Assembly (NCBI GenBank): GCA_963792585.1
Contig: CAWBWI010000001.1
Coordinates: 128,001 to 192,000, forward strand
Direction: 5' to 3'
Source: Candidatus Eiseniibacteriota bacterium
GTDB taxonomy: Bacteria; Eisenbacteria; RBG-16-71-46; CAIMUX01; VGJL01
Length of the DNA stretch: 64,000 bases
In this document: one piece after another, positions 1,500-44,811 of the stretch
How positions within the stretch are numbered: the stretch's first letter is position 1
Layout of the letters: each line of letters opens with the position of its first letter
Notes under the pieces: model-generated
The model's database searches: none
The model's input: only the letters and a program-made list of their open reading frames with translations
What the model was told of the DNA's origin: nothing
Translations under genes and position numbers: made by a program

Positions 1500-2153
1500 C
1501 TACAGCGACCGCGCTGTGATCGCCTCCGTCGCATCGGGCGCATCGACCTCACGCGCCACGACAATGAATCGCTTCGGGGCGGGGCCGAGCCAGTGAAAGG
1601 GGTAGCAGGTGACCAGCGTCAGCCGGGAATCTCCGTGCCCGTCCAAGATGCCGATGTCGGATGGCTCGACGATCGATGTCGACTCGACTCGATAGAAGTG
1701 CGTTCGATCGGGCGTCACGATCCGTATGAGATCGTCCGTCCGCACGCCGCCGAGGCTCCGGAAATGGGTGTCGCGGTGGGCCGCGAGGACGACATTCCCA
1801 GCGTCGCCAGGAAGCGCGGAGCCTACCAGGTGCCCCGCGCCGCTAAGGAGAGAGAGAGACCCGGTGCCTTCGACAATCACAGTGGAGAGTCTGATCCGGG
1901 GAATCTCGATCCTCCCGATGCATGCCGTCCCCGTAGCCGCGCCGCGAACATCAGTCGGCCGGGATTGACCCCGCGCCGCGTCTCGCGACGCTGCGGTCAT
2001 CGCCCGGGCCAACGACCGCTCCGCGATGAACTGAATCACCTCTCCTCCGACGACGCCGGCCCACCAGCACGATAGGCTGAGCCCGGCAACCGAGAAGAGA
2101 ACCAATTCCGCTCTTCGCAACAGCGGCCGCCGTTGGCTGACCATTGGGCGCAT
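1500..2153 (-). CDS. Class D sortase (LPXTG-site transpeptidase)
   Basis: N-terminal TM anchor, GRIEIPRI, GHLVGSALPG..GNVVLAAHRDTHF (catalytic His), LTLVTCYPF (catalytic Cys), KRFIV (Arg). Start uncertain (2201 GTG, 2153 or 2144 ATG). Confidence 0.9.
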   Translation of the reverse strand: MRPMVSQRRPLLRRAELVLFSVAGLSLSCWWAGVVGGEVIQFIAERSLARAMTAASRDAARGQSRPTDVRGAATGTACIGRIEIPRIRLSTVIVEGTGSLSLLSGAGHLVGSALPGDAGNVVLAAHRDTHFRSLGGVRTDDLIRIVTPDRTHFYRVESTSIVEPSDIGILDGHGDSRLTLVTCYPFHWLGPAPKRFIVVAREVDAPDATEAITARSL

Positions 2154-2270
2154 GACCGCAGCGAACCTCCATCCCCCAAGTCGTCCGAGAAGGTTTCGCA
2201 CCCGGCGCCCGAAGGGGGCAGGTCGAACGCCGGGTGCGAGCTAGCTGGGTCCAAAGGAGGGGCGACCCGG

Positions 2271-2765
2271 CTAGTGGCGAATCAGGGCGCGGATCGTCAC
2301 GCCCCCGGCAAACATGAGCAACCCGACGAATGCCAACACAGGAAAGGGACTCGCAGTCTTCGGCATCGTGTCCGATCCGTTTCCAGTCTGGGTGCCATAG
2401 GGATCGGTGGACTGGGATGACGGAGACGACTCCTTCAGTCCGGTTGCGCTCGCATCGACCATCACGTTGGAGACATGGAACGTGCCCGGCGCGGGCGTAT
2501 GATACTCCACCCGCACCGCGGAGCCGGCGCCGACCGTGGCCGGGATGGTGCTCGCCGAATCCCGCGCGAAGATCATCTGATCGCCGCCCTCCGTCCTGAT
2601 CACGAGGGAAGTTGCCGAGACGGAAACGACCGTGCCCATGACGGTGTTTATCATCTCCGTAGATGGAGTGGCCTGGGAAGTTTGCGTGTCGTACTGGGCC
2701 GCGACGGGCGCCGCGAACGCCAGGACGAGGGCGCCGGCCATGAGGATTGCGGTGTATCGGTTCAT
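2271..2765 (-). CDS. Secreted small OB-fold-like (DUF5666-like) protein with sortase sorting signal MPKTAS-TM-basic tail
   Basis: Signal peptide ending APVAA; GTVVSVSATSLVIRT...VRVEY beta domain; Ser/Thr linker; MPKTAS + hydrophobic helix + RALIRH. AAGGAGG RBS; directly upstream of the sortase. Confidence 0.8.
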   Translation of the reverse strand: MNRYTAILMAGALVLAFAAPVAAQYDTQTSQATPSTEMINTVMGTVVSVSATSLVIRTEGGDQMIFARDSASTIPATVGAGSAVRVEYHTPAPGTFHVSNVMVDASATGLKESSPSSQSTDPYGTQTGNGSDTMPKTASPFPVLAFVGLLMFAGGVTIRALIRH

Positions 2766-2869
2766 CTGTGGCCTCCTTAGCCTCTTCAGCTCAAAGCCTC
2801 TACCGCTTGAATCCTTTGGAGCCTCCCTGTGGAGGTTCTCGTTACATCGCCCCATGCGATTCGAGTCAA

Positions 2870-2884
2870 GCAAGTCCGGTGCCA
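2870..2884 (-). promoter_or_regulatory. Sigma-54 -24/-12 promoter for substrate-sortase operon
   Basis: Minus strand reads TGGCAC-CGGAC-TTGC, an exact match to TGGCAC-N5-TTGC, about 105 bp before the ATG. Confidence 0.8.
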
Positions 2885-3094
2885 CAACGCCGAATCAGAC
2901 GCAGGATGGTCCTTACTGAATACGCGATGGGCAGTTGACCGCATCGTCATCGCGACCGCCGAAATCAGTCGGACAGGAATCGGTTTGTAGCCTTTTCCAA
3001 ACGCCGCGAAAACTACCCACATCGACTTCACCCGAGGTCGGGCCCCACGTTCGCAGGCGCGCGCCGCATATGCCTTTACGATGGAACCTCCCGG

Positions 3095-3110
3095 TGGCTC
3101 ATATGTTGCA
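3095..3110 (+). promoter_or_regulatory. Sigma-54 -24/-12 promoter for trehalose operon
   Basis: TGGCTC-ATATG-TTGCA with correct GG/GC spacing, 28 bp before ATG 3138. Confidence 0.75.
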
Positions 3111-3137
3111 TACAGGTTCGGCCGGGAGGGTGCCTCT

Positions 3138-4604
3138 ATGTCATCGCCAGAGTCCCTTCGTGATCTGGTCGCTCAAAAGATCGGCAAGGCGCTATTCGTC
3201 GTCGTGTCGAATCGGGAGCCTTATACGCACTCGTTCAAGGCGGGTAAGATCGAGTGCCGCAGACCCGCGTCTGGGATGGCGACCGGACTCGAACCCGTCG
3301 TACGTGCGACGAAGGGTCTCTGGGTCGCCCACGGCTCCGGCAACGCCGACCGCGCGGTGGTGGACGCGGGCAACAAGGTCCCCGTGCCGCCATCCTCTCC
3401 CGAGTTCACCCTGAAGCGCGTCTGGCTCACCAAATCCGAAGAGGACCACTATTACCACGGATTCTCGAATCGAACGATGTGGCCGCTTTGTCACGTCGTC
3501 TTCGTACGACCATCGTTCGAACAGGCCGACTGGGAAGCCTACCGGGCGGTCAACGAGAAGTTCGCCGCCGCGGTTCTGGAGGAAGTCGGCCAGGAGCGCG
3601 CCTTCGTCTGGATCCAGGACTTCCACCTTTCCCTCCTGCCGAAGCTCCTGAAGGACGCGCGCCCCGATCTGATGGTCGCCCAGTTCTGGCACGTGCCATG
3701 GCCCACGCCCGAGATCTTCCGTCTCTGTCCCTGGAAGACGGACATCCTCAAGGGCCTGCTGGCGAACGACCTGGTCGGCTTCCATCTCCGCTACCACTGC
3801 GACAATTTCCTCGAGACGATCGATCGTGAGCTCGAGGCGCGCGTCGATCGCGAGCGTTCCTCGGTCTTCTCCTCGGGGCACGAGACGCAGGTGCGGCGGA
3901 TGCCGATCAGCATCGACTTCGAGCGGACGGTGGAGATCGCCGACAGCGCCGCGGTTCTCAAGCAGATCGACGCGTTTCGCGAGAACCTGGGCATCCACGC
4001 CGAGTTCCTGATCCTCGGGGTCGACCGATTCGACTACACGAAGGGGATTCCGGAACGGATCCGGGCGCTCGACCGTTTCCTCGAGAAGTACCCGGAATAT
4101 CTTGGGCGGGTCACCCTCCTCCAGACGGGACCGGTCTCCCGGGTCCACGTGCGGGAATACAAGGAACTCAACGATCGGGTGACCGCGCTGGTCGAGGAGG
4201 TGAACTGGAGGCACGGAGTCAACTCATGGCAGCCGATCGTCCTCACCCGTGGTCACCTCAATGAAGTGGAGATGATCGCCCTCTACCGGATGGCGGACGT
4301 CGCATTGGTCAGTTCCCTCCACGACGGGATGAACCTGATCGCCAAGGAGTTCGTCGCCGCGCGGACCGACGGTGGAGGGGTCCTGATCCTGTCGAAGTTC
4401 ACCGGTGCGGCGCGCGAACTCGAGCAGGCGACGCTGATCAATCCGTACGACACGGAGGATTTCGCGGACGCCCTGAAGCGGGCTCTCGAGATGCCCGAGT
4501 CCGAGCGAAGGGAATCGCTCACCAAAATGCAGGATCTCCTCCGGGAACAGAATGTCTATTACTGGGCCGAGCAGTTCGTCTCGCAGCTCTCGAGGTTGGC
4601 CTGA
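3138..4604 (+). CDS. otsA: Trehalose-6-phosphate synthase (GT20)
   Basis: VVSNREP, SGMATGL, YYHGFSNRTMWPLCH, WIQDFHL, FWHVPWP, GVDRFDYTKGIPER, DGMNLIAKEFVA, LSKFTGAA; GGAGG RBS before 3138. Confidence 0.93.
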   Translation: MSSPESLRDLVAQKIGKALFVVVSNREPYTHSFKAGKIECRRPASGMATGLEPVVRATKGLWVAHGSGNADRAVVDAGNKVPVPPSSPEFTLKRVWLTKSEEDHYYHGFSNRTMWPLCHVVFVRPSFEQADWEAYRAVNEKFAAAVLEEVGQERAFVWIQDFHLSLLPKLLKDARPDLMVAQFWHVPWPTPEIFRLCPWKTDILKGLLANDLVGFHLRYHCDNFLETIDRELEARVDRERSSVFSSGHETQVRRMPISIDFERTVEIADSAAVLKQIDAFRENLGIHAEFLILGVDRFDYTKGIPERIRALDRFLEKYPEYLGRVTLLQTGPVSRVHVREYKELNDRVTALVEEVNWRHGVNSWQPIVLTRGHLNEVEMIALYRMADVALVSSLHDGMNLIAKEFVAARTDGGGVLILSKFTGAARELEQATLINPYDTEDFADALKRALEMPESERRESLTKMQDLLREQNVYYWAEQFVSQLSRLA

Positions 4605-5374
4605 TGGCGGCGCACCATCCGTTCCGCTTCGAGACCGCGGCGGTCCTCACACGCCTCACCAACCGCCGCGCCCGGTCCCTGCGCGAGCTGCGGGAGGGTC
4701 TGCAGGTCGCGACCGGATCGATGATCTTCCACCACACCTACAACGCGCTCCTGGACCGGCACTTCGTCGCGGGCGCGCCGCAGAACGACTTCGTCCACTG
4801 GGTGGATCGGACGCTGCGGCTCCGCGCTCTTGCGGAGCGCTTCGACGCGATCGACGCCTATGACTTCACGGATCTTCAGGAACTGCGCAAAGAGCTTGTC
4901 CGGATCCTCGACGATCACCTCGCCCATGGGGGAGAGAACCCGTCGGCTGCGCCTGAAGAGGAGTTCCACTTTCTCGAATCGGTGAGCGTCGCGACGCCGA
5001 CCCCGTTTCTGGCCGAAGATCTCGCGGGTTTCCGGGAAGCTCTCTCCAGGGTGGGAATCCGCTCGATCTACCACCATTTTCTGACCGCGCGGCTGAGAAT
5101 GAGCCGAAAGTCGAATGATTTCTCCACCTGGCTCGAGGAAAGCCTCGACGAGCGGGTGCTTGCGCAGGCGTTCGAGCGGATCGATCCCGGGGTGGGCACG
5201 CTCGAGGATGCGCGGGCCCTGATGGTGCAGCTGGTCGACGGAACGCTGGGAACGCGGAAGCGAGCGAAGGTCCTCAGGCTCGGACTCCTGAGCGCTTCCG
5301 TCCTCGGCGCGCTCGCCGCCGGCGCCCGCGTGCGCGGAAAGGGGAAAGAGGATCATGACCGTCACTCTCGATGA
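4604..5374 (+). CDS. DUF5752-family protein
   Basis: Two internal repeats (SMIFHH...NDFVHW / SIYHHF...NDFSTW); coupled to otsA and treT; hydrophobic C-terminal tail. Confidence 0.75.
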   Translation: MAAHHPFRFETAAVLTRLTNRRARSLRELREGLQVATGSMIFHHTYNALLDRHFVAGAPQNDFVHWVDRTLRLRALAERFDAIDAYDFTDLQELRKELVRILDDHLAHGGENPSAAPEEEFHFLESVSVATPTPFLAEDLAGFREALSRVGIRSIYHHFLTARLRMSRKSNDFSTWLEESLDERVLAQAFERIDPGVGTLEDARALMVQLVDGTLGTRKRAKVLRLGLLSASVLGALAAGARVRGKGKEDHDRHSR

Positions 5375-6584
5375 GTATGCTCCCATCGTGGGCGAGTCCG
5401 AAGTGGCCGAGATCCGCGCCCTCGCGCGGGCCGTCCACGCCAAGCGGGTCCTGCACGTGAACTCGACCGCGGTCGGCGGGGGAGTGGCCGAGATCCTCCA
5501 CCGCCTGGTGCCGCTCCTGAACGAGGTTGGCGTTCCCGCCCGGTGGGAGGTGATCAAAGGCGGAGGAGACTTCTTCGCCGTCACCAAGGCGTTCCACAAT
5601 GCTCTTCACGGCAAGGCGGAGACGATCCGGCCCGACCATCTCGAGACCTTCCGGGAGTACAGCGCAATGAACGCCGCCGCCATGGAGTTCGACGCCGAAG
5701 GGATCGTCATCCACGACCCGCAGCCCGTCGCCATGGTCGAGAAGCGTGGGCGTAATGGGCAGTGGTGGGTCTGGCGCTGCCACATCGACGTTTCCCGGCC
5801 CGATCCGCAGGTGTGGGAATTCCTGCGCCCGTGGATCGAAGCCTACGACGCGGCGATCTTCTCCGCGCCGAGCTTCTCGCAGGCTCTGCCGATCCCTCAG
5901 TTCCTGATCCCGCCCTCCATCGATCCGCTCGCAACCAAGAACCGGGAGCTGGAACCGGAGCAGGTTACGGGAGTCTACGAACGATTCTCGATCGACCGCA
6001 AACGACCGGTCATCGTGCAGATCTCGCGCTTCGATCGCCTGAAGGACCCCTTCGGTCTGGTCGACGCCTACCGGATGGTCCGCAAGCGTGCCGATTGCCA
6101 GCTCGTCCTTGCGGGCGGCGGGGCGACGGACGATCCCGAGGGGGCAGAGGTCCTCCTTGAGCTGCAGGCGATGCGCGGGGAGGATCCCGACCTGCACATC
6201 CTCCACCTTCCCCCGGGGAGCGATTTGGAGATCAACGCGCTCGTGCGCGGCGCGACGGTCGTCGTGCAGAACTCGATCAAGGAAGGCTTCGGCTTGACCG
6301 TCTCGGAGGCGCTCTGGAAGGCAAAGCCGGTCATCTCGCGACCCGTCGGCGGGATCTCATCGCAAGTTCTCCACGGCATCACCGGCTTGATGGCGCATTC
6401 CACCGAGGGCGTGGCCTCCAACATCCGTTACTTACTGTCGCATCCCGATATTGCGACCCGGCTCGGCAGGCTTGGGCGGGAACACGTCCGGCACAATTTT
6501 CTGATCACCCGCCATCTCCGGCAGGAATTGCTCCTCATGATCGCCCTGGACCATCCCGGGGAGCGCGACGTGCGGGTGGCCTGA
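5355..6584 (+). CDS. treT: Trehalose synthase TreT-like glycosyltransferase (GT4)
   Basis: HVNSTAVGGGVAEIL, FFAVTKAFHNALHG, IHDPQP, WRCHID, QISRFDRLKDP, EGFGLTVSEALWK. Confidence 0.88.
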   Translation: MTVTLDEYAPIVGESEVAEIRALARAVHAKRVLHVNSTAVGGGVAEILHRLVPLLNEVGVPARWEVIKGGGDFFAVTKAFHNALHGKAETIRPDHLETFREYSAMNAAAMEFDAEGIVIHDPQPVAMVEKRGRNGQWWVWRCHIDVSRPDPQVWEFLRPWIEAYDAAIFSAPSFSQALPIPQFLIPPSIDPLATKNRELEPEQVTGVYERFSIDRKRPVIVQISRFDRLKDPFGLVDAYRMVRKRADCQLVLAGGGATDDPEGAEVLLELQAMRGEDPDLHILHLPPGSDLEINALVRGATVVVQNSIKEGFGLTVSEALWKAKPVISRPVGGISSQVLHGITGLMAHSTEGVASNIRYLLSHPDIATRLGRLGREHVRHNFLITRHLRQELLLMIALDHPGERDVRVA

Positions 6585-6595
6585 TGGGATGCCGA

Positions 6596-7105
6596 TCAGT
6601 GCCCGGTGCGGAACGTCACACCACCCACGATCGACGTCGTGTCCAGCTCCGTAAGAGCCAGACGGCCCTCCAGGAAGAACGAAGCGGTGCGGCCGGGGAA
6701 GATCACTCCTCCGAGGAGATTCAGCCCCGCATTCGTTTCGTTTTCATCCCTGAACCTCGGCCGATCGATCCGGAGAAAGTGGAGGCCGAAGCCGGCGCCG
6801 AGATAGGGTGCGGCGCTGCCGGCCGGGCCGAAGTGGTAGTAGATGTCGAAGTTCGGGTTCACATCCGACACGCGCCCGCTGCTCCAGTAGCGCAAATTCG
6901 GCTGTAGGTGGAGGCGGCTTCCCCGCTCCTCGAACTCCAGGTGTCCACCGATCACGAGGGCTCCGTCGAGGTCTTCAGGATCCGCGAATCCTCCGCTGAA
7001 GCCGACCCCGGACAAACCGTACGCATGGGAAGGTATCGGGGTCGCGACTGTGAGGGCGACCGCGAGAGCGGCCGTGAACATGACGGCGAGGAATGTGCGC
7101 TGCAT
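6596..7105 (-). CDS. Outer-membrane beta-barrel protein
   Basis: Signal peptide ending PSHA; amphipathic strands, PYLGAGFG, FFLEGR, terminal GGVTF; GAGGAGG RBS. Confidence 0.75.
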   Translation of the reverse strand: MQRTFLAVMFTAALAVALTVATPIPSHAYGLSGVGFSGGFADPEDLDGALVIGGHLEFEERGSRLHLQPNLRYWSSGRVSDVNPNFDIYYHFGPAGSAAPYLGAGFGLHFLRIDRPRFRDENETNAGLNLLGGVIFPGRTASFFLEGRLALTELDTTSIVGGVTFRTGH

Positions 7106-7209
7106 GGAACCTCCTCTATGGCGCGGTTCATTGGTGAGGCCGCGAGACCGACGCGGCTGCGATGCCGGGCGGTCTCGGGTCCTCCAACGCATCCTATCGA
7201 GCGATCCTC

Positions 7210-7359
7210 CTAGATCACCTTTCGACCCTGGATCAGACGGATGAGCACCGAGATGATGGCGAGCACGAGCAGAATGTGAATGAAGCCATGCACGGTGTAG
7301 GCCGTGATCATCCCGAGCAGCCAGAGAAGCACGAGAACTATGGCGATCGTCCACAACAT
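7210..7359 (-). CDS. Lmo0937-family (DUF5670) small membrane protein
   Basis: MLWTIAIVLVLLWLLG...GFIHILLVLAII..LIRLIQGR matches the family pattern; AGGAGG RBS. Confidence 0.88.
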   Translation of the reverse strand: MLWTIAIVLVLLWLLGMITAYTVHGFIHILLVLAIISVLIRLIQGRKVI

Positions 7360-7441
7360 GACACACCTCCTATGAAGCGAATGGGTCCTGTGGTCGGCCT
7401 CGGTCGAGTAAGGATTCCGCGCGGCCTTGGGGTTGGCAGCG

Positions 7442-7687
7442 TCAGATTCGACCCCGCGCGTGCCCGGCCCCGCCCCTTCCCCTCCAAGCGAACAGCCCCG
7501 CGCCAAGCACGATCGCCCCGGCGCCGGCCCAGATGGGCACGTTCACCGTCTTCTTCTCGCGCAATTGGAGCTCGAGGTCTCCCAGCTTTGCTTCGTGCGT
7601 TTCCTTGGTATACGTGACCTTCCCGTAGACGGCGGCCAGGATTCCTCCCGCAACGAGCAGGATGGCGATGAGTCTGCATACGTTCAT
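7442..7687 (-). CDS. Small two-TM membrane protein (DUF3185-like)
   Basis: TM-YTKETHEAKLGDLEL...KKTVNVPIWAGAGAIVLG-TM; GGGAGG RBS. Confidence 0.7.
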   Translation of the reverse strand: MNVCRLIAILLVAGGILAAVYGKVTYTKETHEAKLGDLELQLREKKTVNVPIWAGAGAIVLGAGLFAWRGRGGAGHARGRI

Positions 7688-7777
7688 CGATCGAAACCTC
7701 CCTTCAGGTTCGTGCACGGGACGACTTCCCAACGCCTCCATTCGGAACATGTCGTTCTACACTCCTCGACCCAAACC

Positions 7778-7792
7778 GCAAGGCCCATGCCA
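7778..7792 (-). promoter_or_regulatory. Sigma-54 -24/-12 promoter
   Basis: Minus strand TGGCAT-GGGCC-TTGC, about 90 bp upstream of ATG 7687; divergent from the NtrC-like gene. Confidence 0.75.
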
Positions 7793-7984
7793 CGGGCGCG
7801 GCGGGTCCATAGATTCTATCAACCCATTACCGCGCCTCGAGATAAGAGGGGTCTGTCCATCTGCGTCTGATTTCACGAATAGATTGGGGGGCCTCATCGC
7901 TACTCATGATTGTAGAATCTTCCGTTGGCCGCCAATCTGGCAGGACGGGAGGTGCTGTTGACCGCAAGCAGTGGGGGGAGTCTC

Positions 7985-9415
<1,431 letters not shown>

Positions 9416-9511
9416 ACTCCGCCGGGACACGCACCACCTCCGCTTCATTCCGATACCCACGGTCGACCTGGGGAGCGGGCCGAAAGTCTCCAGCCCGGAG
9501 CCACCGGAGTC

Positions 9512-10153
9512 CTACCGCGAAGTCAGGGCGTCCCGCCTCGCCGAGGGCGGGATCTTCTCGACCATGACGAGCAGCACCTGGCGCTGGTGGGCGTGGTCGT
9601 CGCCCCAGGCCGCGCGCTCCAGTTCGGGCGGCGTCTCTCCGAAGCTGATGGCGTTGTAGCGGACCATCTGCGTCGGCGCGCGCGAGGCCAGGTAACGGAG
9701 CACCGCGTTCGCTCTCAGCTGGGCCAGTTGCAGGTTATAGGAGTCGGTTCCCCGCGGATCGGCGAACCCGTAGAGTTCGGCGAGGTACTGCGGGCTCCTG
9801 TCCATCTCCTGCGCGGCCTGCTCGAGACTCGCCTTGGCCGCATCGTCCAACTCCGCGCTGTCGAATGCGAAGTAGACCTGGTAACGGGCCGCTTCCCGGT
9901 AGTCGACGTTCCCCAGGGCAAGGGAGCGCGAGGAGTCGGCGCGCATGGCGGCGGCCCCGGCTGCGGTCAGAGCGCGGGCTCCATCGCCACGAACCTGGTC
10001 GAGATCCGCGCGCAGGGCCGTGTTCTTGTCCGCCGTGTCCTTTCGAAGATCGGCGACCTGGTTGCGGACGTATCCCTTGGTCGCGCAGCCCGACGAGGTT
10101 GCGAGCACGACCAGCGCGGCGCCGATCCATACGGGAACCTGATTTCCTCTCAT
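9512..10153 (-). CDS. OmpA-family lipoprotein
   Basis: Lipobox SSGC, GCATKGYVR coiled coil, VYFAFDSAEL, GFADPRG...YNLQLAQLRANAV peptidoglycan-binding motif. Confidence 0.85.
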   Translation of the reverse strand: MRGNQVPVWIGAALVVLATSSGCATKGYVRNQVADLRKDTADKNTALRADLDQVRGDGARALTAAGAAAMRADSSRSLALGNVDYREAARYQVYFAFDSAELDDAAKASLEQAAQEMDRSPQYLAELYGFADPRGTDSYNLQLAQLRANAVLRYLASRAPTQMVRYNAISFGETPPELERAAWGDDHAHQRQVLLVMVEKIPPSARRDALTSR

Positions 10154-10197
10154 GACAGCCTCCTCACGCGCTCAACACTCGGCATGGGCCTTCGTGG

Positions 10198-10878
10198 TCA
10201 GAAGCCGACGCTCAAGCCCACGCCGAAGGTGACCGTGTTGTAATCGATGTTGCGGATCTGGTCGCGAACTTCCGAATCGAGCTTTCGTTCAGGGTCGACG
10301 AATACGTACTGGGCCTCTCCCGAGAGGGAGACCTTCTCGGACAAGCTGAGTCTCAGCCCGCCGCCCGCATGCCAGCCAAACGTCGTGACCGACTGATCGC
10401 GGAGTCCGGTCATGCGCTCGACGACGCCGGAGTAGTCGTAGATCACGCGGTACCAGCCGGCCCCGGCCTGCAGGAACGGGGAGGCCCCGGGCGCGAGGGG
10501 CAGATAGAGTCGTCCGGAGACGGTCACCGGCACGCTCTTCACGCGCACGTTCGCGCCATCAATCGTGCCGACCTGAAAGCGCTCGCTCGAACGGTAGTCG
10601 ACGGCGCCTCGCACCCCGAGAAACGGGACGAGTCGAAGCTCCATGTGCCCGCCTACGAGGTAGTTTCCGTTGTCGGAATCGGCGGCCTTGGTATATGCGA
10701 TGTGCGGTCCGTACTCGAATCCTTGGGCATACGCGCCCCCGTTCAGAAGGGAAGCGCAAAAGAGCAAGAGCGCAGGGCCGGACAGATGACGGATTCGACG
10801 CCGTACCGACGGGGTCGACAAACGCGGCACATCCTCTTGCTTCGCGGTCTGCGGCATCATCTGCTGGAATCGAGTCAT
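10198..10878 (-). CDS. Outer-membrane beta-barrel protein
   Basis: Signal ending AYA; PFLQAGAGWY, FGWHAGGG, C-terminal GLSVGF with aromatic end; GAGGAGG RBS. Confidence 0.8.
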   Translation of the reverse strand: MTRFQQMMPQTAKQEDVPRLSTPSVRRRIRHLSGPALLLFCASLLNGGAYAQGFEYGPHIAYTKAADSDNGNYLVGGHMELRLVPFLGVRGAVDYRSSERFQVGTIDGANVRVKSVPVTVSGRLYLPLAPGASPFLQAGAGWYRVIYDYSGVVERMTGLRDQSVTTFGWHAGGGLRLSLSEKVSLSGEAQYVFVDPERKLDSEVRDQIRNIDYNTVTFGVGLSVGF

Positions 10879-10966
10879 GACATATCCTCCTCTTCTCCGG
10901 CAGGCCCACACATCAGCCTGCCGGCGCACGGTCGGTCGATCCGACCGGAACCGCGGATCCATAAGA

Positions 10967-10981
10967 ACAGGATTCGTGCCG
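10967..10981 (-). promoter_or_regulatory. Possible degenerate sigma-54 promoter
   Basis: CGGCAC-GAATC-CTGT: good -24 box but imperfect -12 (GT instead of GC). Confidence 0.35.
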
Positions 10982-11217
10982 CGGCGATGCCGGGAGGGAT
11001 TCGATCGTCCTACGCGCGATGGGCCCGCGAGTTGGCGGTCAGGGGTTCCCGGATATCCGACCGCGAGGCGACGTCTGGAGCCGTGTGAGAACTACAAGCT
11101 CCACCCAGTTTCTACCGACAACGCAGCCCACAACTCGGTCCACCCGAAGTCTCGGCGCTCCCGCCTCGAACCGTCATCGCCTTGGAGGGGTAGAGGTTCC
11201 CACGGTCCGAATCCGCG

Positions 11218-11232
11218 TGGCACGTCCCTTGC
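11218..11232 (+). promoter_or_regulatory. Sigma-54 -24/-12 promoter
   Basis: TGGCAC-GTCCC-TTGC exact consensus, 58 bp before ATG 11291. Confidence 0.8.
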
Positions 11233-11290
11233 GGATCGCGTGCCGGAGCAGATTGAACGAACCGCGCAACCCCGCGGAAGGAGGTAGGAC

Positions 11291-11773
11291 ATGAGGACCA
11301 TTCTCGTAACGATCGCCGTGCTGGCCGTCCTTACGCTACCCGCATTGGCGGGCCCCCAGGATCACGTCGGCTATCGCGGTTGGGGACCGCGGGTCGGTCT
11401 CAGCTCCGGCCCCGACCAGATGCACTTCGGCGCCCACCTGGATTTCGGTTACTTCGCGGAGCACTTTCGGCTCCAGCCGAATCTCGAGGTCGGCGTCGGC
11501 AGCGGTCGAACCATCAGCGCATTCAACGTGGAGACCTCGTATCGATTCCTCACCACGTGGGGGAACTGGTCGCCGTACGCCGGCGGCGGGCTCGGCCTGA
11601 ACATGGTGAGCGGAAACGAGCGCCCGGGCCGCTCGAACGAGGATCTGGGAGCGAACGCCCTGGGAGGAATCGAGAAGGGGCTTTCGAACGGGGATCGTTT
11701 CTTCCTGGAGACAAAGCTCGGGCTGGGCCATGCTCCGGACATTAAATTCACAGCGGGCTGGACGTTCTACTAG
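11291..11773 (+). CDS. Outer-membrane beta-barrel protein (paralog of 6596-7105)
   Basis: Signal peptide; GAHLDF, RLQPNL, SPYAGGGLG, FFLE, terminal GWTFY; shared motifs with 6596-7105; AGGAGG RBS. Confidence 0.8.
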   Translation: MRTILVTIAVLAVLTLPALAGPQDHVGYRGWGPRVGLSSGPDQMHFGAHLDFGYFAEHFRLQPNLEVGVGSGRTISAFNVETSYRFLTTWGNWSPYAGGGLGLNMVSGNERPGRSNEDLGANALGGIEKGLSNGDRFFLETKLGLGHAPDIKFTAGWTFY

Positions 11774-12141
11774 AGGCTCGGACTCCCATCTCGAACGATC
11801 GAAGACCGAAGCGGGAAGGCCGGGACTGCAGGGGGCCAAAGGCATCCTGCGATCCCGGCCGACCCGCGCCGCGTGCCCGCCACCTCGCGATGAGGAACGC
11901 CCGGCTTCGGTGTCCGCGCGGGCGGGGTAGGAAGCACTCTCCCCAATGGCGTCCCGTGAGTCATGAGAATCGTGGCACAGCGCGAATTGCGAAGCGACTC
12001 CTCGTCCCAAGATGTGATTTGGTCCCTCGCGGGTATCACTGGCAGTATTCCTACGACTGCCTAGTATGCAGTGTGCAATCACCCGGCCGCATCCGGCGAT
12101 CGGGTGCCCACCGTTCCGATGACCTCTTGGAGGTCACACGC

Positions 12142-18593: not shown

Positions 18594-18609
18594 TGGCACG
18601 AGCCGTGCA
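18594..18609 (+). promoter_or_regulatory. Probable sigma-54 -24/-12 promoter
   Basis: TGGCAC-GAGCC-GTGCA with correct GG/GC spacing, about 78 bp before ATG 18687. Confidence 0.6.
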
Positions 18610-44697: not shown

Positions 44698-44811
44698 CTT
44701 GTTATCGAGAGAGGCGCGAGGGTTCTGGCCCGTGGACCGCCCGGCAACCTGGCAAGCCGCCAAGGTGCCAATGCCAGCCCGGGAGCGGGGACGATACGGC
44801 TCGATGAGCAA
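44698..44811 (+). ncRNA. SAM-I (S-box) riboswitch
   Basis: TTATC-GAGAG-GC..GAGGG..CTGGCCC...GGCAACC...GGTGCCAA..CC...GATGAG matches the S-box core; directly upstream of metK; TTGACA at 44664. Confidence 0.85.

Follow-up and report, generated by a model that had tools for sequence, protein, structure and literature searches.

What, if anything, holds together a sortase, a trehalose operon and a set of outer-membrane proteins that lie side by side in a genome of Candidatus Eiseniibacteriota? We address this question for positions 1500 to 11773 of a 64,000-nt window (contig CAWBWI010000001.1 of assembly GCA_963792585.1, positions 128,001 to 192,000), "the window" meaning this whole stretch. The cluster comprises 12 genes with five sigma-54-type promoter sequences, and a preliminary description had taken it for a stress, desiccation or dormancy module under sigma-54 and one central NtrC-like activator. 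In our reading, to which we assign a probability of roughly 0.65 on the strength of sequence comparisons, the activator likely drives all five promoters through shared enhancers; the system would work like QseEGF, would now receive its phosphoryl group from a paralogous (type-B) kinase, and would have recruited the trehalose operon late. Compared with the preliminary description, the support has become stronger for the regulation and weaker for osmostress.

Sigma-54 promoters

A pattern scan recovered the four -24/-12 sites of the preliminary description where it had placed them, only one end being corrected from 3110 to 3109, and all four are intergenic and face the next start codon, as it had stated. 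The promoters (P1 to P5) and the enhancers are the following.

2870..2884, minus strand: P1, -24/-12 site with no mismatch to TGGCAC-N5-TTGC; precedes the substrate and sortase genes
3095..3109, plus strand: P2, -24/-12 site with one mismatch (TGGCTC variant); precedes the trehalose operon
7778..7792, minus strand: P3, -24/-12 site with one mismatch; 13.6 bits with the held-out matrix
10967..10981, minus strand: P4, weak -24/-12 site, GT replacing GC at -12; 10.3 bits
11218..11232, plus strand: P5, -24/-12 site with no mismatch to TGGCAC-N5-TTGC
2984..3000, no strand: enhancer 1; distances 110 nt (P1) and 105 nt (P2); 12.6 bits with the held-out model
7909..7925, no strand: enhancer 2, weak, only one of its half-sites being good; distance 127 nt (P3); the activator start follows after 60 nt
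11082..11098, no strand: enhancer 3; distances 111 nt (P4) and 130 nt (P5); 15.1 bits

These 10.3 kb are the densest -24/-12 cluster of the assembly. Namely, the exact sequence TGGCAC-N5-TTGC has 11 copies in the whole 5.4 Mb, two of which lie here. On our own gene calls, 45 sites with one mismatch or none are intergenic and point the right way; four of them fall inside this stretch, while no other 10.3-kb stretch holds more than two (Poisson P of about 2e-6 per stretch, for about 524 stretches). In the 64-kb window, matches with at most one mismatch number nine against 2.43 expected, a count that was reached in none of 100 shuffles. The promoter matrix finally used was built from relatives, with this genome held out; it replaced a matrix trained on the genome's own sites, whose seeds contained no TGGCT variant and which gave P2 a score of only 6.9. 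Scans for sigma-70 promoters and for terminators returned matches at or under chance level, and a scan of the five promoter-enhancer spacers for IHF-like sites gave one loose match only. Elsewhere in the window, a sigma-54-like site at 18594-18608 (plus strand) lies ahead of a DUF7670 membrane protein and shows no clear enhancer.

The promoters are also conserved, the module loci of relatives carrying sigma-54 sites at matching positions. In particular, near-identical counterparts of P1 stand at the orthologous position in the relatives G004 and G015, and orthologues of P5 in G004 and G023. The weak fifth site of the preliminary description holds up as well: a P4-like site faces the orthologous unit in 8/8 checked loci of relatives, and in 6 of 8 type-A loci it likewise lacks GC at -12, these same regions having trained the scoring matrix. 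In strain contigs P2 is identical (X1 and X7), as is P1 (X1), and none of the 32 substitutions counted away from the ends of X1 falls within 2847-2886, 2980-3025 or 3092-3110; by a hand estimate, the chance of three such untouched elements is about 0.005. Contig X1 also carries 208 extra bases between treT and the first beta-barrel gene (window 6588-6591).

A shared enhancer motif

An unseeded motif search of 25 module promoter regions of relatives, with this genome left out and the sigma-54 sites masked beforehand, found the palindrome TGTA-N5-TACA de novo, with a log-likelihood of 88 against 27-34 in five shuffles. Leaving out one genome at a time, the motif was regained in 15/15 regions of the type-A system, the one to which the cluster belongs (at most 2/100 shuffles each). 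An even-width palindrome model fitted poorly, the motif being odd in length. In the cluster, the score of enhancer 1, which sits in the invariant block 2980-3025, was equalled in 1/300 shuffles and that of enhancer 3 in 0/300; each has a faint second copy, at 3003 and at 11102. Each divergent promoter pair has one central enhancer 105-130 nt away, and the spacing of about 80-150 nt upstream that one would look for in a shared enhancer is found with strong sites at two of the three and with a weak site at the third.

Genome-wide, and with held-out matrices, an enhancer at 85-149 nt accompanies 7 of 322 candidate sigma-54 promoters against about two expected, and five of the seven are P1-P5. The two distant ones both carry tandem enhancer copies 19 nt apart: one precedes a second sortase substrate, ending in LPATAS and homologous to the first, and the other a 68-aa Cys protein like one in an island of G021. 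The co-regulation of the cluster genes that had been proposed is supported, and the regulon reaches past the window.

What is more, the motif distinguishes paralogues. Promoters of the type-B system carry another motif, and the three cluster regions score 14.0, 8.1 and 15.2 with the type-A model against 6.1, 2.9 and 6.6 with the type-B model, while the region beside this genome's own type-B activator scores 4.8 and 19.5, respectively. Since the paralogous activator has a different motif, the local NtrC-like protein is indicated as the regulator. Shared enhancer and promoter conservation together back the proposal of co-regulation by sigma-54 and a central activator.

Two further loci of this genome (G000) were noted in these scans. 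At C1:87956-89227 (L311), three small proteins of 68, 53 and 167 aa, none of a known family, are preceded by a strong promoter with enhancers in tandem. A second sigma-54 island at C1:1270750-1281411 (L313) was considered as a regulon member and left uncounted, its enhancer being marginal (46/300 shuffles); it holds genes for DUF4398-OmpA lipoproteins, PA2779-like and C39 peptidase-like proteins, with divergent strong promoters, and paralogues of barrel 3, of the lmo0937-family protein and of the small membrane protein.

Genes of the cluster

The gene features are as follows.

1500..2201, minus strand: sortase; PF04203 and TIGR01076 above cut-off; likely start at the ATG at 2153
2271..2765, minus strand: predicted sortase substrate, 164 aa; signal peptide, small conserved domain, MPKTAS, transmembrane helix, basic tail
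3138..4604, plus strand: OtsA-family trehalose-6-phosphate synthase; PF00982; TIGR02400 at 453.6 bits, below its cut-off of 564.85
4604..5374, plus strand: DUF5752 protein; PF19027
5355..6584, plus strand: TreT-family trehalose synthase; PF21269; E 1.8e-124 to a solved trehalose synthase
6596..7105, minus strand: predicted small outer-membrane beta-barrel 1; weak PF13505 match, E 0.008
7210..7359, minus strand: lmo0937-family small membrane protein; NF033488 above cut-off
7442..7687, minus strand: 81-aa two-helix membrane protein; no family above cut-off; homologues recur in module loci of relatives
7985..9415, plus strand: NtrC-like response regulator, type A, with receiver, AAA and helix-turn-helix domains; no adjoining kinase
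9416..9511, no strand: gap of 96 nt, where the cognate kinase and lipoprotein genes stand in relatives
9512..10153, minus strand: OmpA-domain lipoprotein of a distinct family; PF00691; own alignment; 210 related loci in several phyla, with Acidobacteriota and Gemmatimonadota among them
10198..10878, minus strand: outer-membrane beta-barrel 2; PF13505 above cut-off
11291..11773, plus strand: predicted small outer-membrane beta-barrel 3; module loci contain orthologues at 55% identity; no Pfam match of its own

The cluster has five transcription units, read from two divergent pairs of promoters and a lone one: substrate and sortase; otsA, DUF5752 and treT; the 81-aa, lmo0937-family and barrel 1 genes; barrel 2 and ompA; and barrel 3. 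Family models confirm the sortase, OtsA, TreT, lmo0937-family and OmpA lipoprotein assignments, and in the regulator Asp55, Lys105, both Walker motifs, the GAFTGA motif and the helix-turn-helix are all intact, as expected of the central activator that had been proposed. The claim of three beta-barrels fares unevenly: the product of 10198-10878 passes the Pfam cut-off, that of 6596-7105 gives a weak match, and that of 11291-11773 is connected to PF13505 only through a 59% identical paralogue that matches it. Nearly all homologues of OtsA among solved structures carry trehalose-6-phosphate synthase names, and DUF5752 was matched in 35/61 genomes.

The sortase scores like class D and stays below the cut-offs of both the class D model (NF033746, 121.5 bits against 165) and the class GN model. 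Its His142, Cys199 and Arg211 are intact, the triad being invariant in the sortase alignment, and the substrate's succession of MPKTAS, hydrophobic helix and basic residues is kept in relatives; the pair thus has the catalytic triad and the motif, helix and basic tail that one expects of a sortase transpeptidase and its substrate. Homologues of the substrate occur in 35/201 genomes of the phylum, often adjoining a sortase. A putative long G+C hairpin between the two genes (window 2200-2240) could lower sortase relative to substrate. Outside the cluster, a SAM riboswitch (S-adenosylmethionine; RF00162) at 44699-44799 of the window (plus strand) precedes a metK-like gene.

The conserved core and the lost kinase

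In relatives, an ompA orthologue stands beside the activator (59-67% identity) together with a HAMP-domain kinase and a small lipoprotein, often with barrels, the lmo0937-family gene and the 81-aa protein; the module loci contain BON, YtxH, DUF1328, CBS and lmo0937 genes. The idea of the cluster as one module therefore needs dividing: the core of regulator, kinase, lipoprotein, OmpA and barrels is conserved, and the whole is not an ancient unit, the trehalose genes lying elsewhere in relatives. An unseeded search of 42 dereplicated ompA upstream regions from outside Eisenbacteria returned the sigma-54 motif with a score of 97, where three shuffles gave about 59; many individual sites in this set are weak.

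In relatives the system exists in two paralogous forms that differ in kinase size, about 490-500 aa for type A and mostly about 600 aa for type B. The cluster activator is sister to the type-A copy of G015 (support 99/93; the whole type-A group reaches only 84/69) and bears the type-A helix ISLKTLYTRL. A kinase follows directly downstream in 28/30 activator copies of the order, the exceptions being this copy and an extra one in G001, and the lipoprotein is conserved beside the kinase, Rokubacteria-type loci included. The preliminary description was right that no kinase adjoins the activator here; to this we add that the usual neighbouring kinase and lipoprotein were lost. A hidden Markov model search of 9300-9700 found no remnants of either gene, and contig X1, from an independent strain, is colinear across the gap (8883-11945, 269 differences), which shows the local loss to be real. 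In this 84%-complete genome, profile searches detected the type-B pair of kinase and lipoprotein on contig 3 and no type-A pair. With the type-A kinase and lipoprotein lost from the locus, the type-B kinase would be the most likely phosphoryl donor of the cluster activator.

The type-B system of this genome (activator, kinase and lipoprotein) occupies C3:1024109-1028163 and has an enhancer motif of its own; a divergent sigma-54 site there, at 1028147, is followed by about 1 kb in which no gene is called and where relatives have ompA.

As to the lipoprotein, a predicted complex of the kinase sensor and lipoprotein of G004 scored 0.48 against 0.00 for the best control, with at least 92% of contacts shared between runs and a partner pLDDT (predicted local distance difference test) of at least 82. 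The mark used for such scores was reached by 116/157 solved and 2/215 mismatched pairs, and of the pairs reaching it only 18 solved ones, along with both mismatches, score 0.60 or less. The model thus lends weak support to the lipoprotein contacting the periplasmic sensor of the kinase. No Pfam family is common to the lipoprotein's members, and a fold search gave no match at E 0.001 or better, only generic three-helix bundles; a single-sequence fold of the kinase (pLDDT 46) gave no usable model. A metagenome scan with the activator returned distant paralogues only (best segments 36-54% identical) and was not used as evidence.

Trehalose operon and Rokubacteria-type loci

The trehalose survey covered 20 loci from 19 of 34 relatives, and the cluster OtsA groups, in a FastTree tree that leaves the order within the set unresolved, with Rokubacteria-type copies and those of two other families, away from its family mates; no donor is claimed. 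As none of the 34 trehalose units in those loci bears promoter plus enhancer, the trehalose operon is a lineage-specific recruit.

In the Rokubacteria-type loci, the same family of kinase, lipoprotein and activator lies upstream of a gene for a 177-aa protein, otsB and otsA, with ompA convergent. The Eisenbacteria-trained enhancer and a promoter stand before ompA in 7/8 of these loci, where TGGCT variants like that of P2 also occur, and before the 177-aa gene upstream of otsB-otsA in 4/5, whence we infer read-through from this promoter to otsB. Two such loci filed under other taxon titles are probably mis-binned. At L140:10646-12901, a Rokubacteria-type OtsA is extended at its N terminus by 270 aa that include two hydrophobic segments; the extension is membrane-sensor-like and has no Pfam match.

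Sigma factors

The rpoN gene is present in this genome, split in two pieces by frameshifts, and was found in 35/35 genomes of the order. The frameshifts probably stem from assembly error, since rpoD, several activators and other genes are split here as well. Two full-length rpoN paralogues occur in most genomes of families f2 and f3, and one in those of f1. In a survey of sigma factors other than extracytoplasmic function ones, this genome has RpoD and two FliA-type factors, and no SigB, SigF or SigG scored above cut-off in 35 genomes. A second group-2 sigma factor, whose best match is RpoS and which scores below the RpoS cut-off, occurs in 0/13 near-complete genomes of the two closest families and in 103/112 of those from other families; its absence from the 13 counts as one evolutionary event and not 13.

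That said, families f10 and f16 and Rokubacteria genomes carry both the RpoS-like sigma and the kinase family, so that sigma-54 rather than RpoS or SigB, as originally proposed, applies to this clade (none in this genome or in any of the 13) and not to others. Mutual exclusion of the system and the RpoS-like sigma is clean within the order and fails phylum-wide; only loss in two families is therefore claimed.

Proposed mechanism and its alternatives

Phosphorylated NtrC-type proteins bind enhancers and open sigma-54 promoters, which is established behavior. Building on the motifs, geometry, conservation and gene content above, we infer for the remainder that the phosphorylated activator encoded at 7985 would bind the three enhancers and open all five promoters, on both sides of the enhancers. 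The output would be sortase and substrate, trehalose synthesis, the OmpA lipoprotein, three barrels and small membrane proteins, probably an envelope or general stress response. In relatives, a HAMP kinase with a periplasmic sensor would act with the lipoprotein and activator, the lipoprotein informing the kinase of the state of the envelope, as in QseE-QseG-QseF of E. coli. Here, the kinase and lipoprotein of type A would have been deleted and the paralogous type-B kinase, encoded on another contig, would most likely phosphorylate the cluster activator, merging the inputs of two regulons, and the trehalose operon may have landed late behind a pre-existing enhancer. That the signal might be osmostress, desiccation or dormancy is a guess based on gene content, namely the modules of relatives and trehalose in two phyla.

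A number of observations weigh against this account. Enhancer 2 reaches 10.4 bits with the mixed model and is equalled by 79/300 shuffles with the strict type-A model, which is not significant, and as five promoters share three enhancers, they are not five independent matches. Phylum-wide, a promoter with enhancer lies directly upstream of only 3/21 substrate homologues against 1/98 control genes (5 of 26 loci were left out, three as used earlier and two for want of a gene call). Promoter and enhancer together precede 0/34 trehalose units in the 20 loci of relatives, four of these units having a weak promoter-like site alone; otsB (PF02358) was not found in this 84%-complete genome, where a TreT-family route is present, and neither were CsbD, BON or DUF1328, and its YtxH gene has no enhancer. 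The Rokubacteria-type loci are one lineage, their OtsA being 93-97% identical. As for cross-phosphorylation, the activator's receiver helix retains type-A residues with no convergence on type B and so lends it no support. The genome has 26 activator-like open reading frames by blastp, and a type-A kinase could lie within the missing 16% of the assembly.

How do other explanations fare against the same evidence? Perhaps one chance in several, by our estimate, belongs to a regulon that is real and serves surface remodelling, such as aggregation or biofilm, rather than stress, in the manner of the PEP-CTERM or proteobacterial sortase systems, with trehalose as an incidental passenger. Every part of the conserved core, after all, belongs to the envelope (sortase substrate, OmpA lipoprotein and barrels), relatives have their trehalose genes at other loci, and a sorting system for floc formation under sigma-54 and an enhancer exists (PMC1569441 and PMC9850573, in their available portions). 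On the other hand, BON, YtxH, DUF1328 and lmo0937 genes sit in the module in several genera, otsB-otsA lies behind the same system in a second phylum, and the module loci examined showed no recognisable exopolysaccharide genes. Rather improbable is that the activator is a relic, loss of the kinase having silenced or nearly silenced the regulon so recently that its signals persist. The kinase and lipoprotein are indeed absent at the locus and were not found in the 84%-complete genome, and the cluster enhancers score below those of most relatives, one being weak. Yet the activator's reading frame and all its catalytic motifs are intact, the two distant promoters retain their tandem enhancers, and a strain about 9-10% divergent shares the deletion while P1, P2 and enhancer 1 are unchanged amid differing flanks.

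Very improbable, finally, is a collection of independent sigma-54 promoters under different activators, or of chance matches, in which the activator's position is incidental. Activators are indeed numerous in the genome, and consensus promoters other than these number at least 35; however, the sites cluster, the enhancer is absent from most other strong promoters and linkage is conserved in relatives, and the genome-wide enhancer scan, the paralogue-specific motifs and the leave-one-out and shuffle tests largely refute this explanation. More tentatively, and with the odds against it, the kinase-lipoprotein-activator family of at least Eisenbacteria and Rokubacteria may run a sigma-54 general-stress programme that, in the clade without the RpoS-like sigma, replaced this lost factor, repeatedly captured trehalose synthesis and was rewired in this lineage, through deletion of one kinase, to one sensor and two activators with different enhancers.

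General-stress programmes are known under alternative sigma-70 factors. A sigma-54 route, if true, would follow another design, gated by ATP and kept tightly off until a signal arrives. In addition, the activator family, the two paralogue-specific enhancer motifs and the promoter positions form a package for work on uncultured phyla; the enhancer permits prediction of regulon members in other genomes, having here predicted the second sortase substrate, and the diderm sortase-substrate pair fits no curated class.

Comparison with known systems

The gene families of the modules overlap with those of the RpoS and SigB regulons, to which otsA, BON, YtxH, DUF1328 and lmo0937 are assigned; lmo0937 did not turn up in the Listeria papers searched for its link to general stress. 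The predicted control differs, being exerted by sigma-54 and an ATP-driven activator and not by an alternative sigma-70 factor. In the portions of the papers available here, csbD belongs to the SigB regulon (PMC8066629), and sigma-54 is linked generally to the cell exterior, lipoproteins and envelope functions (PMC3162934); the main text of the latter makes no mention of trehalose, OmpA or Acidobacteria, and this system was not seen there.

Among sorting systems, the pdsS-pdsR-pdsO-target-sortase system, in which a two-component system raises a diderm sortase, its substrate and an OmpA-like protein together (PMC11580497, available portion), resembles the cluster in all three components and in two-component regulation. 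In contrast, our sortase scores 93.9 against a class GN cut-off of 158.25 and our OmpA protein 44.9 against 152.2 for PdsO, and the 164-aa substrate has no TIGR03788 match, so that all three fall outside the class GN, target and PdsO definitions. True GN-type sortase loci are separate in relatives and have no TGTA-N5-TACA enhancer: loci L033-L037 combine a class GN-type sortase and a VIT-domain target with sigma-54-like sites, and two of them adjoin an NtrC-like regulator and a kinase-sized gene. The PEP-CTERM/exosortase regulon of PrsK-PrsR-PrsT has, by genome prediction, a sigma-54 site and a 17-nt enhancer ending in TTTACA (PMC1569441, available portion), and thus likewise places protein-sorting substrates behind both elements. 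Here, however, there is a true sortase and not an exosortase, with a 13-nt palindromic core about 105-130 nt upstream; the activator scores 398.2 (cut-off 502.6) and the kinase 77.6 (cut-off 300) with the Prs models, and no cluster protein matched PEP-CTERM or exosortase families.

A further likeness is to a system whose activator QseF recognizes TGTC-N10-GACA, a site longer than TGTA-N5-TACA. In the Enterobacteriaceae, QseE-QseG-QseF (GlrK-YfhG-GlrR) unites kinase, lipoprotein and sigma-54 activator in one operon, and QseG tunes QseE (PMC6075780, available portion). Shared with it are this gene set, activation via upstream sequences and an envelope-related output. The cluster activator, at 342.9 bits against a GlrR cut-off of 763, does not qualify as a GlrR orthologue, the lipoprotein of relatives has no QseG-family Pfam or fold match, and the targets differ. 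By analogy, then, the system would work like the QseEGF, pds and PEP-CTERM systems while falling below the membership cut-offs of each. The literature searched, a coverage that left out most subscription papers and supplements, gave no description of it; it is an undescribed QseEGF-like sigma-54 system.

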